Source of the DNA: a virus
DNA length: 39,244 nt
UHGV virus genome: UHGV-1357478
Direction: 5' to 3' (one strand)
This document shows, in pieces, positions 2,524-27,476 of this stretch (its first letter is position 1; each line of letters starts with the position of its first letter). The notes below the pieces were generated by a model. The model had not been told where the DNA came from. It saw nothing but the letters and a program-made list of their open reading frames with translations, and searched no databases. A program made the translations under genes and the position numbers.

Positions 2524-4137
2524 GTGGATAATAAATTATTGAACGGTTCTAGGTTTGATAAAGAAGCAAATCTAGTTTATAAAGTACCAGTAAGCAAACT
2601 GCCTACTCGAATAATGCAATATTCGAACGGAGAAAAAGAAGAAGTCGTAGATTTTGAGCATCAGGATGTTTTTAATATGATTGTAAAATTTGTCCGACAT
2701 CATAAAGAAAAACAAGTTCCTCGCCTTAAAGAATTAAAGCGTTATTCTTTAGCACAAAATAATATTAAGTTTACTGAAGATAAAAGTGAAAATCGAGCAG
2801 ACAACAAGATTGCAAACGATTGGGCTAGATTTATTGTCAATTTTAAAAAAGGCGTATTACTAGGTAATCCTTTGAAGTACAATGGCGATAAAACTATAGC
2901 TGATAAAATTAATGATTTTTCTAGCAAATCAAATGAAGATTATCATAATCAGTTAATGTTAGACGACTTACTCGTATACGGAAGAGCATTTGAATATATC
3001 GGTAGAGATGAATACGGTAAAGAAATGTTAGCTAAATTCAGTCCAGAAGAAACGTTTATTATTTATGATACAACGACAAACAAAAATTCTGTATGTGCTG
3101 TTCACTGTTATGATCTCGATTTTAACGATGAAACATTTAGTTATATCGATATTTATGCAAATGATGGCTATTTTTATCAACATGAATCAAAAAATCAAGA
3201 CTATGAACAATCTAAATTGATTGATAAATATCAAACTTTCTTTGATTCTATTCAAGTAAATGAATGGATTAACAATGAGGAGCGTTTAGGAGATTTTGAA
3301 ACAGTTTTAGATAATATAGATGCATATGATCTATCGCAATCTTCAATGGCTAATTTCCAACAAGATTCATCTGAAGCTTATTTAGTTATTAAAGGAAACC
3401 CAGAAACTGCTATAGATGATGAAGATGGTAATTCTGCAGTAGACGTTTTAAACGACATGATAAAAGCTAGATTGTTAATCTTAGGAGATAAGAAATATTA
3501 TGGTGATGGCCAAACTGGTAGCGATCCTGATGCATACTACTTGAAAAAAGAGTATGATACACAAGGGACAGAGGCATATAATGACCGTTTGGTTTCTGAT
3601 ATGTTGCGCTTCACTTCTTTAATTGATTTTACCGATGAAAATATTGGGAGTAATCAGTCTGGTATTGGATTTAGATTTAAAGGTTGGGGAAGTGACAATG
3701 ATAGAAAGAACAAAGAAAGAATGGTCAAAAAAGCAATCATGAGAAGACTAAGATTACTAACTTATTCTTGGTCATTGAAAGATAACTTAAATAAACCAAC
3801 AGGGCTTGCTGAGAAAGTTAAGTCTTTTTTTGTATCTAGAGATAATGATAAAGAGCTGCTTTTTGAAAAGGTGAATGCTATAGAGATATTATTCACACCA
3901 AACGTTCCTCAATCAGATAAAGAAATTATGGAAGTTATTGCCGGAATGGTTGGAATTGTTTCAGATGAAACACTTTGCGAAATGGCGGCTAAATTGACTG
4001 GTGTTCCTGTTCAAACAGAACTAAAGAGATTGAAAAAGGAAAATCAGCCAGATACATTATCCGATGAAAATGCAGCGAAGCTTAAAGAAAAACAGGCAGA
4101 ATTTTTGGCGAATCAGTCGGAAACAGAGGAGGACTGA
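2524..4137 (+). CDS. portal protein
   Basis: 537 aa, immediately after terL, acidic C-terminus; matches the canonical order. Confidence 0.7.
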   Translation: MDNKLLNGSRFDKEANLVYKVPVSKLPTRIMQYSNGEKEEVVDFEHQDVFNMIVKFVRHHKEKQVPRLKELKRYSLAQNNIKFTEDKSENRADNKIANDWARFIVNFKKGVLLGNPLKYNGDKTIADKINDFSSKSNEDYHNQLMLDDLLVYGRAFEYIGRDEYGKEMLAKFSPEETFIIYDTTTNKNSVCAVHCYDLDFNDETFSYIDIYANDGYFYQHESKNQDYEQSKLIDKYQTFFDSIQVNEWINNEERLGDFETVLDNIDAYDLSQSSMANFQQDSSEAYLVIKGNPETAIDDEDGNSAVDVLNDMIKARLLILGDKKYYGDGQTGSDPDAYYLKKEYDTQGTEAYNDRLVSDMLRFTSLIDFTDENIGSNQSGIGFRFKGWGSDNDRKNKERMVKKAIMRRLRLLTYSWSLKDNLNKPTGLAEKVKSFFVSRDNDKELLFEKVNAIEILFTPNVPQSDKEIMEVIAGMVGIVSDETLCEMAAKLTGVPVQTELKRLKKENQPDTLSDENAAKLKEKQAEFLANQSETEED

Positions 4138-5851: not shown

Positions 5852-6493
5852 ATGAAAACAAAAAAACTATTATTGCCAATGCATTTACAATTCTTTGCTG
5901 ATAATCCAGATACTGGCACTGGGGATACGGACCAACCGGCCGGAGGTCAAGAGCAAACACCGCCAGAAGATGATAGTAAAGATAAAGGCAATGGAAAAAC
6001 GTTTTCTCGTGATGAAGTAGCAAAAATGATTGCTGCTGAAGTATCAAAAACAAAAGAAGCTTGGGAAAAAGAGCTTCAAGAGAAACAAGAAGAAGCTGAT
6101 AAATTAGCCAAAATGAATGATCAGGAGAAAAATGATCATGAAAAGCAGAAGTTACTTGAAAAAATCAAAGAGCTGGAAAGTGCGCAAAACTTAGCTGAAA
6201 TGTCTAAGACTGCTACTACAATGTTTTCTGATAAAGGTATTCAAGCGACTGAGGGATTACTTTCGTTAGTAGTAAAGGAAACAGCAGAGGAGACATCTGA
6301 AAATGTTAAAGCTGTTGTAAAACTTATTGAAACTGAACGTGAAGCGATTAAAGCAGATTTTGAGAAACGAATTGGTTCTAAACTCCCACTTGATGGAAAT
6401 GCTGATGCTAGCTTATCTCGTGGTGCACAAATGGCTAAACAAGCAAATAATCAAAATAAAGCGCCTGAAAATAATCCTTGGGCGACAAATTAG
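5852..6493 (+). CDS. scaffolding protein
   Basis: Acidic, coiled-coil-rich 213 aa directly upstream of the capsid gene; RBS GGAGG. Confidence 0.65.
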   Translation: MKTKKLLLPMHLQFFADNPDTGTGDTDQPAGGQEQTPPEDDSKDKGNGKTFSRDEVAKMIAAEVSKTKEAWEKELQEKQEEADKLAKMNDQEKNDHEKQKLLEKIKELESAQNLAEMSKTATTMFSDKGIQATEGLLSLVVKETAEETSENVKAVVKLIETEREAIKADFEKRIGSKLPLDGNADASLSRGAQMAKQANNQNKAPENNPWATN

Positions 6494-6505: not shown

Positions 6506-6847
6506 ATGGTTTATGTAAAGAAAACTCAAACATATCAAGATATTAATTTTTTAAAGAGCGAAAAATTTATTTCGTTCACAAAACAAGTTGATGAAAAAAC
6601 TGAAGGGGTAGTAAAAGGAGTGTTACCTGCAGGATCAGTGTTCCCTAAAAATGATGCTACAGCAGAAGGTATTACAATTAACGATGTTGATGTATCAAAT
6701 GGACCACAACCGGTAGGAGTAATTGTTGAAGGTCATGTTCTTATTAAACGATTACCAGTTGAACCATCATCGGAAGCTCAAAAAGCAATGCGTGAAGTTA
6801 AATTTTATGATGCAAACGGTAAAATGCTAGCAGTTCCAACTGCTTAA
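6506..6847 (+). CDS. hypothetical head protein
   Basis: 113 aa between scaffold and major capsid; RBS AGGAGG. Confidence 0.45.
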   Translation: MVYVKKTQTYQDINFLKSEKFISFTKQVDEKTEGVVKGVLPAGSVFPKNDATAEGITINDVDVSNGPQPVGVIVEGHVLIKRLPVEPSSEAQKAMREVKFYDANGKMLAVPTA

Positions 6848-21341: not shown

Positions 21342-21370
21342 GTCCACCTTATTCAAGGTGGACCTATTTA
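21342..21370 (+). terminator. terminator of the late/lysis operon
   Basis: 9-bp stem gtccacctt / aaggtggac with loop attc. Confidence 0.6.
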
Positions 21371-21440
21371 CATAGAAAATCAATAAAAGTTTAATAAGAA
21401 CTTTATATATGATATGAGGGATAATTTTAAAATATGATTT

Positions 21441-21463
21441 GCCTATTAAGCCTTGTTTATAAT
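21441..21463 (+). promoter_or_regulatory. putative sigma-A-type promoter for the accessory cassette
   Basis: TATAAT at 21458-21463 with an upstream TTG-containing element. Spacing is not ideal. Confidence 0.3.
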
Positions 21464-21508
21464 ATACTGTATGCAAATAGGTATATAAAGATGTGGGGGG
21501 AGAAGTAC

Positions 21509-22357
21509 ATGGGTAAAGTTATTTCGGTGATTAATATGAAAGGTGGAGTGGGTAAGACAACGCTGACAAAAGAACTAGGTTATTTTATGGCCAAAAATAA
21601 AAACAAGAAAGTTTTGTTTATTGATTTAGACCCACAATCTAATTTAACTCAGTCATTTTTTCTAAATAAAAAGTTAAGACATCAAGAAGATTTGAATGAA
21701 CCTAAACAAAATTTAAGATTAGTAAGTCAGTCTATTCAGAAACTTTTTGATTCATCTTCGATTGGTAAATTAAAAGATTCAGAAGTTATTTTGAATCTGG
21801 AACAAAACTTTACAGTTGACCTTATTCCAGGCACATTATCAACTATTTTTCTAGAAAGATCATCAAATTCATCGAATATGGAAAGAGCAGTTTATAATTT
21901 TATTGAAGAAAAAGAGTTAAAGAAGAAATATGATTATATATTGATTGATTGTCCACCCACATATTCTGTGTATACTGTTTCCGCTTTACTTCCGAGTGAT
22001 TTTTATTTTGTTCCTGTTGATCCAGGTATATATTCAGTTTTAGGAATAACCATGTTAGAAAAAGTTGTTAATGCAATAAAAGAGCCAAATAAATTGTATT
22101 TTAAAGATAAACCATTACGACATTTGGGGGTCATCTTTACTAGATATAATAGTGATTCTGATTATTTGGTTGATATGATTGAAACAGCAAAGTCGTTAAA
22201 AAATATGTACTTTTTTAAAGAAAGATTTTTATTTTCAAAAAAATTAGTTGATCGACCGTTGTACTTTATCAGTGATAATAGTGATCAAAGATTATTAGAA
22301 AATCTAAATGCAATTTTTGATGAAATGGAAAGGAGGATTAATGGATTTGAGAAGTGA
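21509..22357 (+). CDS. ParA/Soj/MinD-superfamily P-loop ATPase
   Basis: Deviant Walker A KGGVGKTT, A' motif DLDPQ, Walker B ILIDCPP. Start at the ATG 21509 after GGGGGAGAAG; the track ORF starts at 21434. Very AT-rich. Confidence 0.8.
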   Translation: MGKVISVINMKGGVGKTTLTKELGYFMAKNKNKKVLFIDLDPQSNLTQSFFLNKKLRHQEDLNEPKQNLRLVSQSIQKLFDSSSIGKLKDSEVILNLEQNFTVDLIPGTLSTIFLERSSNSSNMERAVYNFIEEKELKKKYDYILIDCPPTYSVYTVSALLPSDFYFVPVDPGIYSVLGITMLEKVVNAIKEPNKLYFKDKPLRHLGVIFTRYNSDSDYLVDMIETAKSLKNMYFFKERFLFSKKLVDRPLYFISDNSDQRLLENLNAIFDEMERRINGFEK

Positions 22358-22718
22358 ACTTAAAAAAATTAGAGTATCAATTATTGATAATTCAGAAGAA
22401 CAAGTCAAAAGTGAATTGTACGGAATTTTTTCTTCATTAATCCTTTCTAAAAAAATAGCACCTAAAAATTCAGATTTAAAAGGTATAATGTCGGAATTAA
22501 ATTTTAGTTTTAAAGAATATGTTTTTAAGAGTAGAACTATCCTTTTGTCACGAATTATAAGAGCAATTGAAAAGATGGATGAAAAAGAAGTAAGTATTTT
22601 AATAGAAAAGTTAATTAATTTTATTGAAGTTGACGATATTCTTAATCAAAAAACAAAAGTATCATACAAAAAGAAAAAGAAAAATATCTTTGATGATATT
22701 TTTAATCAACTAGGATAG
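22341..22718 (+). CDS. hypothetical protein (125 aa), translationally coupled to the ParA-like gene
   Basis: Overlaps the 3' end of the ATPase gene by 17 nt; AGGAGG upstream; no recognisable motif. Confidence 0.55.
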   Translation: MDLRSELKKIRVSIIDNSEEQVKSELYGIFSSLILSKKIAPKNSDLKGIMSELNFSFKEYVFKSRTILLSRIIRAIEKMDEKEVSILIEKLINFIEVDDILNQKTKVSYKKKKKNIFDDIFNQLG

Positions 22719-22722
22719 ATAA

Positions 22723-23391
22723 ATGAAAAAGGATATTCAGACAGAATATAAGAGGTATTGTGAATATCTGGAGAGTTACTTTCCAGAAACATCGCTTGCG
22801 CATAATAAATCAGAAATCTTAGTAAAGGATGTATTTGAAGTTACGATGTCTCTTTCTAAAATAGCTCATTTTCTTGACGAAGATAGTAATTATTCTTATT
22901 TTACAAATTTAATTGAATATAATTTGAATAATTTACTTTATTTTTTACCCTTGAATGAACTAGTTTCATATAATGTTTCAATTAGAAATTGTACTGAAGC
23001 AATTTTGAAAATGATTTTTACATTGGAAGATGAAGATGTTGATCATAAATCTACTGGATATAGAACTATGAAAGATAACAGAGAAAGACTTTTGATATAC
23101 CAAAAACATAAGAACAAAATTGATAATCTTTTTTCAATTTATAGTAACAGATCCAATTCTTTACATTTGAAAAAAGCAAATGAAGTTGAATTGACGAAAA
23201 TGTTGGAAAATAAGTTATGTCGTCAAATAAATAAAACAGAAATGAATGAAATCAAGCAAGATTTAAGTAATTGCAAAACAACATTATTAGAAGTTATATG
23301 TTTTTACAACATAGATTTATCCACTCAGCAAAAATTGAATCTCAAAAGATTTGTATCAAAATCATGGATAGAAAAGTTATACTGTTTATAG
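22723..23391 (+). CDS. hypothetical protein (222 aa), possible HEPN-like R-x4-H motif
   Basis: Starts 4 nt after the previous stop. RSNSLH at aa 143-148. Compositionally all-alpha. Very AT-rich. Confidence 0.55.
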   Translation: MKKDIQTEYKRYCEYLESYFPETSLAHNKSEILVKDVFEVTMSLSKIAHFLDEDSNYSYFTNLIEYNLNNLLYFLPLNELVSYNVSIRNCTEAILKMIFTLEDEDVDHKSTGYRTMKDNRERLLIYQKHKNKIDNLFSIYSNRSNSLHLKKANEVELTKMLENKLCRQINKTEMNEIKQDLSNCKTTLLEVICFYNIDLSTQQKLNLKRFVSKSWIEKLYCL

Positions 23392-23504
23392 TTAGGTAGA
23401 AAATCATGCTATAAGGTTTATTGCACTTTAATGTATTTTTTACTAATATCAATAGATATAATTGAAATAAAACATGTCATAATTGATATTAAGATATGTA
23501 GGCT

Positions 23505-23548
23505 TATAAAAAAACTCCAACTCCAGATAAGAGTTGGGGTTTTATTTT
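23505..23548. terminator. bidirectional terminator
   Basis: Stem ccaactc/gagttgg with an A-run upstream and a T-run downstream. Sits between the convergent genes 22723..23391(+) and 23547..23795(-). Confidence 0.65.
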
Positions 23549-23795
23549 ATGCACTAATCAAAGATTTTCTAACAAGCATTTTCTCAATTACAAGTTGATT
23601 TCGTTTATTCAAATGACCATAGACAGCTAATTCAGATTGTTCAGGTAGCATTAGTAACATATTTGCTAGCTCGCATTTGGAGACGATACAGTTTATAGTT
23701 TCGTCCTGTGTTACTAATGAGAATCGAACTAGCATTTTTGGATACATACTTAACATTCTAATCTTTTCAACTACTCCTACATAATTAGTTTTCAT
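23547..23795 (-). CDS. hypothetical protein (82 aa)
   Basis: Good RBS AGGAGGG 7 nt upstream of the ATG on the minus strand. Lies next to the att region. Confidence 0.5.
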   Translation of the reverse strand: MKTNYVGVVEKIRMLSMYPKMLVRFSLVTQDETINCIVSKCELANMLLMLPEQSELAVYGHLNKRNQLVIEKMLVRKSLISA

Positions 23796-25398: not shown

Positions 25399-25563
25399 AT
25401 GCATAAAGAGTTAAGAAAAGATTACGACTTGTTAAAAGCTAAAAATAGAAAAAGAAGAATAGAACACCAAATCCAAATGTCTAATAGCCAACATCAATAT
25501 AACTTCAATTCAGAAAAAATAGAAAAAAGATTAAATAAGTTTATTCCGACTCGAAATAAATAG
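25399..25563 (+). CDS. candidate excisionase-like small basic protein (54 aa)
   Basis: ATG with GGAGTG RBS; perfect TATAAT at 25357-25362. Divergent from and adjacent to int. Highly basic. Confidence 0.3.
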   Translation: MHKELRKDYDLLKAKNRKRRIEHQIQMSNSQHQYNFNSEKIEKRLNKFIPTRNK

Positions 25564-26476
25564 CTAGTGGGCGTATAAAGTATCCGTCGTCTTCTAGTAA
25601 TGAGTAAGAATCCAATATTATTTCTGTAAACATTGCAGGAGTTGAAGAGGCGATAACACTCGTCTCCAATTGTTCTCCGTCTTTTGGCAATATATTGTTA
25701 TCCCTTTTTGAAATTACGATTCCCAACATTTTTAGTTTTCTGCGAGTTTGCCCAAGTGCCGCAATGATTGGAGCATTGACGCGCAGATTATTTTTATCTA
25801 ATATAGACATTGTATTTTTGATTATAATTAGAATTGAGTTCGGATATAACAATTGTGAGAAAGAAGCAAACCGTCTGACTAATTCAAAATTTTTAGTGGA
25901 ATCTTGTTCATCAATCTTTTCTTTTAATTCTTCAATTTTTTGTTTTGCAGTATTGCTTTTTTGTTTTTTCTTCGATAGTTTTTCAAGCTGCTGCTTTTCA
26001 CGTTTTAATTCTTCTGTTTCAATCATAACTAAATTTACGGATTCCTTTTTAGTTAATTCCTCAAGCATTTCGAAATCATAAATTTTAAAATTATCTTCAA
26101 TACAAATAAAATCTCCTTCTTTCCACTGGTCCGCCATGACTAGTGATTTGTTTTCTGTAAGTTTATTTATAAGTACATCTAAAGAATAGTCATCCATTAT
26201 AGTATCAACTAGCTCTGTATTACTTTCAGAGAACACAAAGTTGAATTTATCTATTTCAGTTTGTGAATAGTCAGTACCTGCTTTCACAATACCTGGCACG
26301 CCCCCTGAAACATTACCTGACTTAGTTATTTGCTGACCTCCTTCCTCGCCATTTGTTTTTTGTTCATTCTTTCCAATTGTAGCCTTGGCTAATAAACCTT
26401 CATCCATTTGTGCTAAATATGAATTTATTAACTTTGTATCCAAATAGATAAATTCTTTCAAGATAGATCCCTCCAA
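25541..26476 (-). CDS. hypothetical protein (311 aa), lysogeny-strand accessory gene
   Basis: Central charged coiled-coil; no recognisable motif. Sits between the lipoprotein gene and int. Confidence 0.5.
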   Translation of the reverse strand: MEGSILKEFIYLDTKLINSYLAQMDEGLLAKATIGKNEQKTNGEEGGQQITKSGNVSGGVPGIVKAGTDYSQTEIDKFNFVFSESNTELVDTIMDDYSLDVLINKLTENKSLVMADQWKEGDFICIEDNFKIYDFEMLEELTKKESVNLVMIETEELKREKQQLEKLSKKKQKSNTAKQKIEELKEKIDEQDSTKNFELVRRFASFSQLLYPNSILIIIKNTMSILDKNNLRVNAPIIAALGQTRRKLKMLGIVISKRDNNILPKDGEQLETSVIASSTPAMFTEIILDSYSLLEDDGYFIRPLAIYFESE

Positions 26477-26711: not shown

Positions 26712-27476
26712 TTAGAAGTTTTCTGAAACAACCTCTCCATTTACAATTTTTGCAATCTCTTTATTATCTTTGAGTAATACTATAGGGTAATCTATTTCAT
26801 ATGCAGATTTAGCTGACTTAGATAACGATTTGGCACTGTCTAATAAAGATTTTTTTATATCTGATGAATCGAGTTGTTTAACTTTTGAAATATCAATGTC
26901 TAGCTGTTCGCTATCAGTATTAAATTTAGAAATAGCTCCAGTTGATTTAAAGATGTAATCAGAATCTCGAACCAAGTAATTTTGATATTCTAATTCCTTA
27001 GAGGAATGAGAGCTGTTATTATCTAATATTGGAAATGTAACATTACCATCTTGAACAACAAAAACATCTTTATTAATATCACCAGGATATTTCAATTTAA
27101 TTTTATATTCTTTACCAATGGCCTTAGAAATACTTTTAGATAAATTTGTAAAGTTAGATGAAATATCAGTTAAAGAATCTTTGTATTTTGGTATTTCGGC
27201 ATTATCTGCAACAGTTTTTAAAGTATCTGTTACTGATAATCCTACTATTGGATCTAAAACAAAGCTTTTTGATTCTTTATCAAAAGTAACTTTATGATTT
27301 TTGGAAAAATTATCTTGTAAGTCTTTTAAAGTTGAGCTTATTAATTCTTCTTTTTTGTTATCAATTTTACCTACTTCAGTTTCTGAACTATTATTTGTTT
27401 TTTCGGTAGATTGAGAACATCCAGATAACGCAACGGTCAATAGCAAAAAAGATGTGAAAATAACCTTCTTTTTCAT
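26712..27476 (-). CDS. lipoprotein (254 aa)
   Basis: Signal peptide with lipobox LSGC (MKKKVIFTSFLLLTVALSG|C). RBS GGGGAG. Confidence 0.7.
   Translation of the reverse strand: MKKKVIFTSFLLLTVALSGCSQSTEKTNNSSETEVGKIDNKKEELISSTLKDLQDNFSKNHKVTFDKESKSFVLDPIVGLSVTDTLKTVADNAEIPKYKDSLTDISSNFTNLSKSISKAIGKEYKIKLKYPGDINKDVFVVQDGNVTFPILDNNSSHSSKELEYQNYLVRDSDYIFKSTGAISKFNTDSEQLDIDISKVKQLDSSDIKKSLLDSAKSLSKSAKSAYEIDYPIVLLKDNKEIAKIVNGEVVSENF

Follow-up and report, generated by a model that had tools for sequence, protein, structure and literature searches.

A three-gene ParA-type ATPase cassette in an Enterococcus faecalis prophage resembles the RemAIN defence module of Salmonella

The virus genome UHGV-1357478, the whole 39,244 nucleotides of which we refer to as the window, represents a phiEf11-like temperate phage of Enterococcus faecalis; in a search with its first 21.3 kb, which hold the structural and lysis genes, phiEf11 matched 85% of the query at 95.7% identity. 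Behind the lysis genes of this phage lies a compact cassette of three genes headed by a ParA-type ATPase, for which an earlier reading of the letters alone (the original prediction) had proposed a novel accessory system, serving either defence or partition. We confirmed the presence of three plus-strand open reading frames (ORFs) at the coordinates given there. The cassette and the signals that bound it are listed here; designations beginning with Rem refer to RemAIN, a system of a Salmonella prophage to which we return below.

Gene 1, 21509..22357, plus strand: ParA/MinD-class deviant Walker-A ATPase by sequence, 282 aa, 849 bp, RemA-like
Gene 2, 22341..22718, plus strand: candidate helical adaptor or immunity protein, 125 aa, 378 bp, in a RemI-like position
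Gene 3, 22723..23391, plus strand: HEPN-fold protein by its model, predicted metal-independent RNase effector, 222 aa, 669 bp, RemN-like
Lysis-operon hairpin, 21342..21363, plus strand: 9-bp stem GTCCACCTT/AAGGTGGAC, 4-nt loop, weak T tail
AT-rich leader, 21364..21508, plus strand: -10-like TATAAT at 21458-21463, gene 1 ribosome-binding site at 21495-21505
Bidirectional intrinsic terminator, 23511..23543, not assigned to one strand: ends both the cassette and a convergent 82-aa ORF

The tight coupling that had been claimed is evident in the sequence, with genes 1 and 2 overlapping by 17 nt and genes 2 and 3 separated by 4 nt, and purine-rich ribosome-binding sites stand ahead of 21509 (GGGGGGAGAAG) and 22341 (GGAAAGGAGGA). 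The public annotation starts slightly further upstream, yielding proteins of 288 aa and 132 aa; because the N-termini are conserved, we favour the start codons chosen in the original prediction. At 26.0% GC, as against 35.0% in the remaining window, the cassette is as AT-rich as had been remarked, and the bidirectional terminator behind it is called on both strands at 23511-23543, where each strand folds with a z of about -4. The two upstream signals fared less evenly. A terminator had been placed at 21342-21370; the 9-bp hairpin there is real (free energy -14.7 kcal/mol, z -4.1), but the terminator scan made no call, because the T run is short. Likewise, TATAAT does occur at 21458-21463, but the region holds no more promoter-like matches than chance would give (20, as against 20.6 expected in shuffled sequence), and a promoter of the cassette's own near this box is, on the sequence, plausible. 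At most related loci an upstream terminator is followed by an AT-rich leader of the cassette's own, some 130-150 nt long and with -10-like boxes, while the upstream DNA varies between genera without conservation. The Lactococcus leaders (L010/L012/L014, about 6040-6060) contain the tandem repeat TATTAGTCA-G-TATTAGTCA, and the Vagococcus leader (L001, about 6690-6720) contains the palindrome ATATCTAATAT...ATATTAGATAT, which spans the -10-like box; from their sequence, these repeats are possible genus-specific candidate operators, unconserved between genera.

The original prediction had placed the cassette between endolysin and attP; its neighbours are an Amidase_2/SH3_5 endolysin gene upstream and, downstream, the 82-aa ORF followed by a tyrosine integrase gene. 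The closest relative, phiEf11 (NC_013696, 21054-25301), holds unrelated genes in this interval, namely those for an autolysin regulator, a DD-metalloendopeptidase, a glucosyltransferase and a LysM protein, and the cassette can be regarded, as had been suggested, as accessory cargo of foreign appearance in a prophage slot of variable content. The endolysins of the two phages also differ in type, that of phiEf11 being of the GH25/LysM kind.

Gene 1 is, by its sequence, a ParA/MinD-class ATPase. It is matched by the Pfam models AAA_31 (1.7e-37) and CbiA (3.9e-20) and by phrog_164, 'ParA-like partition protein' (1.3e-44); Pfam, PHROG and NCBIfam agree on the ParA assignment, and Soj/ParA are its nearest solved relatives. 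The motifs KGGVGKTT, DLDPQ and ILIDCPP that had led to this assignment in the original prediction are indeed present, as a signature-lysine Walker A (NMKGGVGKTT), a Walker A' (IDLDPQ) and a Walker B (ILIDCPP), and an N-terminal helix-turn-helix (HTH) domain is absent. Since the signature lysine, the catalytic lysine and threonine, the A' aspartate and the B aspartate (K11, K16, T17, D39 and D147) show no variation among 17 diverged relatives, the protein is expected to be catalytically active as an ATPase. The aromatic C-terminal tail of the gene 2 product had prompted a reading of gene 1 as a bacterial tyrosine kinase, composed of activator tail and kinase as in CapA/CapB. This candidate was set aside, as gene 1 has a Walker A of the ParA type with the signature lysine and a DxDPQ-type A' motif, with no tyrosine cluster, and the tyrosine-autokinase model hits it at 4.4e-5 only, far under the model cut-off.

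While the original prediction could place no motif in genes 2 and 3, we found that each carries conserved features. Gene 2 encodes a four-helix bundle followed by a variable linker and a conserved lysine-rich amphipathic C-terminal tail, KKKKKNIFDDIFNQLG (a segment also designated KKKKNIFDDIFNQLG), which is unchanged in 26 homologues. Every remote clade keeps a tail of this type, with a lysine-rich run, then an amphipathic helix and usually a glycine at or near the end, for example KNYMKEVLKLYG, KFDDLLNQFER and NENDKLKKWLKGL. Basic terminal peptides of ParB, ParG, MinE and PomX stimulate their ParA/MinD partners, and by analogy with these peptides we infer that the gene 2 tail may be the contact to the ATPase. 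No Pfam model matches gene 2, and a ribbon-helix-helix (RHH), HTH or ParB fold was looked for in it and not found; the clear ParB/RHH homology named in the original prediction as grounds for abandoning the novel reading is absent.

These properties of gene 2 bear directly on the second reading offered in the original prediction, in which the cassette would be a type Ib-like partition system whose ParA and small adaptor segregate an episomal phage, gene 3 being accessory. Like ParF/ParG, delta/omega and the ParA/ParB of pB171, the cassette combines a small deviant Walker-A ATPase, genuine, catalytically intact by its residues and of type Ib size, with a small partner that bears a basic, lysine-rich terminal peptide of the ParA-stimulating kind, and ParA genes do occur in some temperate phages. 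However, a partner that lacks a DNA-binding fold is unlike those of type Ib systems; neither in nor around the cassette are there iterated centromere-like repeats, and upstream regions are, as noted, unconserved between genera. Two diverged gene 3 queries matched none of 72,556 plasmid records, the triad occupies a core chromosomal site without a replicon as well as integrase-bearing prophages, and partition offers no role for a conserved HEPN-like third gene. We therefore reject this reading as highly improbable.

Gene 3 is matched by nothing in Pfam, PADLOC, PHROGs or NCBIfam. AlphaFold models it with confidence (predicted local distance difference test score, pLDDT, 91.7) as an all-helical protein, a four-helix up-down bundle in which an insert separates helices 2 and 3, as in the HEPN superfamily. 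The hallmarks of HEPN domains are an R-x4-6-H motif with a polar residue after the arginine and an upstream acidic residue within E-x3-[KR] (PMC3710099), and both motifs occur in gene 3, as E92-AIL-K96 and R143-SNSL-H148. Throughout the family, down to about 20% identity, R88, E92, S144 (cysteine in the most remote members) and H148 are invariant; position 96 is lysine or arginine, with asparagine in one Staphylococcus member, and R143-S-N-S-L-H148 is invariant in the close clade. Families in which the histidine is kept and the basic residue has been relocated are on record among HEPN domains, for example Parep1/8 (PMC3710099). On the basis of model and residues, we consider the HEPN assignment good but not certain. 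Named alongside the predicted fold were Csx1-Crn2, sacsin, Roquin, LsoA, RnlA, AbiA and several HEPN toxins. Profile searches with gene 3 against Protein Data Bank (PDB) sequences found nothing. A UniRef label on one relative ('Cthe-2314-like HE…') raised membership in the Cthe_2314 HEPN family, which Pfam searches on 13 + 10 + 9 family members did not confirm.

The original prediction had asked whether homologous triads are conserved in their neighbourhood. In four independent samplings, all from Firmicutes, triad order is kept in 16 of 16, 28 of 29, 5 of 5 and 72 of 74 loci. Starting from homologues of gene 2 or gene 3, the triad was whole and collinear at every one of the 16 loci (Enterococcus, Vagococcus, Marinilactibacillus and Lactococcus). 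In a remote clade, the gene 3 products of which share only 20-25% identity, ParA and gene 2 lie upstream in 28 of the 29 loci with room for them, and the exception is a deletion variant. All five loci reached from four ParA relatives, in Staphylococcus pseudintermedius, Listeria monocytogenes, Bacillus velezensis and E. faecium, carry homologues of the second and third genes. Among viral contigs of IMG/VR, 232 encode a ParA bearing the clade motifs, and the full triad, as judged by architecture, hidden Markov model and motif, is present in 72 of the 74 fetched loci with room; in the other two the third gene carries a frameshift.

An exhaustive profile search with gene 3 yielded 73 cluster representatives, nearly all of 215-240 aa, and a ParA search yielded more than 500 clusters at E <= 1e-20, for part of which the partner genes were checked. 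Mean pairwise identity declines from 49% for gene 1 to 34% for gene 2 and 29% for gene 3, a gradation to be expected if the motor is conserved while the immunity and effector parts evolve fast. The three genes form an obligate unit over deep divergence. Decayed copies also exist: ParA is split in two in L002 (413-1284), and L026/L060 and L100 have a frameshift in the third gene. At L042 a ParA fragment and the third gene alone remain, which hints that the third gene either is tolerated without its partners or is inactive there.

The linked genes are mobile between positions, and we found the triad in at least five kinds of site: (i) the junction between endolysin and phage attachment site (the window, and Lactococcus, Staphylococcus and Listeria comK prophages); (ii) the space that separates the late regulator (phrog_36) from the small terminase subunit; (iii) the interval from the repressor/ImmA region to the integrase; (iv) small integrase/VapE satellite-like islands in L. 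cremoris; and (v) the core chromosome after rpsI in Vagococcus, where no mobile genes lie within 8 kb.

The second of these sites, in particular, invites the explanation that the cassette benefits the lytic cycle of the phage itself, being expressed late to bring about host translational shut-off, counter-defence, or a ParA-driven spatial organisation of replication or packaging. Many gut and Marinilactibacillus phages do carry the triad between late regulator and small terminase, oriented like the late genes, and in the window the lysis genes precede it on the same strand, separated from it by a hairpin whose T tail is weak. Yet the site varies and the triad also occurs outside phages; phiEf11 and other close relatives are viable without it; and most loci are insulated by the upstream terminator and leader described above. 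Furthermore, gene 3 queries from the window and from Staphylococcus matched none of 50,697 sequenced phage records, and the Salmonella analogue is expressed in the lysogen regardless of induction (PMC9879122). A lytic role is thus quite unlikely. In the same records the cassette DNA has no full-length match, and the best ParA match reaches 42% identity over 75% of the query, in contrast to the 232 IMG/VR contigs that encode a ParA with the clade motifs; the module seems confined to prophages not yet isolated as phages.

The original prediction knew of no described defence system built on a ParA-like ATPase with partners of this kind. This does not hold, as RemAIN was named in 2024 (Sargen & Helaine, Cell Host Microbe 2024, via PMC13043305) and a ParA/Soj-HEPN dyad had been predicted in 2013 (PMC3710099). 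RemAIN is described here after the citing papers PMC9879122, PMC13043305, PMC12626290 and PMC13492144. RemAIN comprises the ParA-like ATPase RemA, the immunity protein RemI and the HEPN nuclease RemN (PMC13043305), and is encoded by STM14_3218-3220 of prophage Gifsy-1 in Salmonella Typhimurium 14028 (PMC9879122). STM14_3218 (840 bp) is ParA-like and has no ParB partner, STM14_3219 (309 bp) received one transposon insertion, as against 223 and 103 in its neighbours, and STM14_3220 spans 663 bp; the region is strain-variable, lies beside the repressor and shows expression unaltered by mitomycin C (PMC9879122). It is needed for the signal that activates RtcR, which, in the authors' view, is RNA with a 2',3'-cyclic phosphate end, the product type of metal-independent RNases (PMC9879122). 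RemAIN has been reported to act as an anticodon nuclease, to protect against phage and to block the lytic cycle of co-resident prophages including ST64B (PMC13043305, PMC12626290, PMC13492144).

The architecture of the cassette matches that of RemAIN. In both, the order is ATPase, small protein, nuclease (a predicted one in the cassette), with 279/102/220 aa in RemAIN and 282/125/222 aa here; both have a ParA-like ATPase without a ParB partner and a third protein that is a HEPN protein, predicted as such in the cassette; and each belongs to the variable accessory cargo of a temperate siphovirus prophage. They differ in host (Firmicutes as opposed to Proteobacteria), in position (the endolysin-integrase junction as opposed to the immunity region beside the repressor) and in the middle protein, that of the cassette being about 20 aa longer than RemI and having the conserved lysine-rich amphipathic tail.

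In the 2013 dyad, a ParA/Soj ATPase gene is paired with an MAE_18760-family HEPN gene, and the pair was proposed to be a toxin-antitoxin system in which the ATPase is the antitoxin (Anantharaman et al. 2013, PMC3710099). As in the cassette, a ParA/Soj-class ATPase adjoins a HEPN protein with catalytic-type motifs, and control of an RNase toxin by the ATPase was proposed; however, the dyad is a two-gene unit, as opposed to an obligate triad with a middle adaptor, and MAE_18760 HEPN domains are often fused to other N-terminal domains, while gene 3 matches no curated model that would assign it to a HEPN family. The 2013 proposal supports the possibility that the cassette is a toxin-antitoxin addiction module of three components, which stabilises the prophage or island and has no dedicated anti-phage role, the ATPase (with gene 2) neutralising the HEPN toxin and loss of the element killing the cell. 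The tight translational coupling and the presence of the triad on many kinds of mobile element are consistent with addiction, as is the transposon-poor middle gene of the Salmonella analogue (PMC9879122). On the other hand, the Salmonella system of the same architecture confers, as reported, measurable phage defence and prophage competition, and the non-mobile chromosomal copy has nothing to stabilise. We regard pure addiction as unlikely, although toxin-antitoxin behaviour and abortive-infection defence are compatible and not mutually exclusive.

Taken with the accessory position and the obligate linkage, the RemAIN-like architecture makes defence the best supported of the readings, and we consider it reasonably probable that the cassette is a self-contained accessory operon, a RemAIN-type module of defence or prophage competition. 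In the mechanism that we propose, gene 3 would be the effector, a metal-independent RNase of HEPN fold, for which tRNA cleavage is probable by analogy with RemN. Gene 2, produced by translational coupling, would most likely act as the immunity protein that silences the RNase, and would link it to the ATPase through its lysine-rich amphipathic C-terminal peptide, while the gene 1 ATPase, of a class that ordinarily works as a motor for positioning DNA, may serve as a nucleotide-dependent switch or sensor that decides on RNase release. In the lysogen, where the cassette would be expressed, infection by a competing phage or induction of a co-resident prophage might free the RNase; translation would then stop, and the lytic programme of the competitor would be blocked.

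Several observations weigh against this interpretation. (i) In many phages the triad lies directly before the terminase genes, where it could be expressed late and serve the phage itself. (ii) The promoter scan of the region does no better than chance (20 found, 20.6 expected). (iii) The arginine of the R-x4-H motif, R143, is restricted to the close clade, R88 being the invariant basic residue in remote members. (iv) Curated HEPN models (Pfam, E<=1) match none of 32 gene 3 family members, composed of the window protein with 12 close relatives, 10 remote and nine very remote members, and a Foldseek search of the gene 3 model against the PDB was not significant (best E 0.16). (v) The likeness to RemAIN is one of composition, order and sizes, and the gene 3 profile reached no named enterobacterial protein. 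(vi) Those named gene 3 family members that we looked up are from Firmicutes only, including one Negativicute, which leaves room for convergence with RemAIN. (vii) None of the three proteins is covered by a PADLOC model.

The convergence that the host range would allow can be given a specific form. The Firmicutes triad may have been assembled independently, as an analogue and not a homologue of RemAIN, with ParA acting as a surface-bound sensor of the nucleoid or of foreign DNA, with the lysine-rich C-terminal peptide of the adaptor driving the ATP cycle, and with a split active site, R88/E92 with S144/H148, replacing the HEPN R-x4-H motif. We consider this unlikely. If the triad is convergent, ParA-class positioning ATPases would be a recurrent, convergently recruited class of sensors in bacterial immunity.

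Under the preferred reading of a RemAIN-type module, which would extend to common ancestry with RemAIN, the cassette is apparently an uncharacterised Gram-positive member, possibly a variant, of a known kind of system, the central idea having been published for Salmonella. A RemAIN-like function, if true, would define the first Gram-positive branch of a defence type characterised so far in one Salmonella prophage only. This branch is a large one, with hosts in Enterococcus, Lactococcus, Listeria, Staphylococcus, Bacillus and gut Clostridia-like bacteria. A function of this kind would bear on phage therapy against E. faecalis, on phage resistance of dairy lactococci and on prophage competition in polylysogens. 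The four invariant residues of the effector, the invariant terminal peptide of the middle protein and the fully conserved ATPase site offer handles on the mechanism. In PADLOC-DB v2.0.0 (2023), genes 2 and 3 and their remote members match nothing, and the sole match of gene 1 is a weak P-loop hit to PDC-M28B (4.7e-5). Because there is no PADLOC model for the three proteins and no Pfam model for genes 2 and 3, surveys based on PADLOC v2.0.0 or Pfam would score such loci as 'ParA plus hypotheticals'.

The cassette can also be compared with other HEPN-based systems. HepT-MntA (HEPN-MNT, type VII toxin-antitoxin) includes an MNT nucleotidyltransferase, which the cassette lacks, having instead a ParA-fold ATPase and a third protein, and gene 3 exceeds HepT in length by about 90 aa. 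The solo HEPN defences HepS of Gifsy-1 and Tha of staphylococcal prophages are likewise prophage-encoded HEPN RNases that act as abortive-infection effectors in the lysogen; however, they are single proteins that sense phage tail proteins directly, while gene 3 comes with an ATPase and an adaptor. Lactococcal abortive infection (Abi) systems such as AbiT, which are of similar sizes, were ruled out on the grounds that PADLOC gave no hit and that no Abi system with a ParA ATPase appears in a 2026 Abi review or in surveys of lactococcal defence, the plasmidome and the mobilome.

The neighbourhoods of some triad copies deserve mention in their own right. The L. cremoris islands (L010, L011, L013) carry an integrase gene, a gene for an NYN-domain protein or a VapE-like primase, depending on the strain, and insertion sequence elements, and resemble phage satellites. 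In a comK prophage of Listeria monocytogenes (L053/L054, 7123-8544), an LXG/EndoU polymorphic toxin gene and a small ORF directly follow the triad at the end of the prophage, in a stack of conflict genes. On the Bacillus velezensis chromosome (L055, 656-3748, minus strand), the triad lies beside a gene for a 1030-aa AAA_11/AAA_12 helicase-like protein, with no obvious prophage, and its neighbourhood looks like a defence island.

Within the window, the convergent 82-aa ORF (23547-23795, minus strand), which uses the same bidirectional terminator as the cassette, is matched by neither Pfam nor PADLOC. A gene for a 311-aa DUF6414 protein (25541-26476, minus strand; Pfam 1.1e-16) occupies the interval from the integrase to the ImmA/repressor genes and is followed by a 254-aa ORF without family (26712-27476, minus strand). 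A PADLOC search matched neither; the two genes are a second accessory slot of the prophage. Finally, the P22-like Salmonella phages ST160 (NC_014900, locus 2968-4074), SE1 and ST-32 encode a lone ParA-like protein of 368 aa, its gene coming directly behind those for the c2 repressor and a DUF3024 protein. Partners of the gene 2 or gene 3 kind are absent, and about 800 bp beyond the gene carry no annotation; it may represent another ParA-based accessory function in the immunity region.

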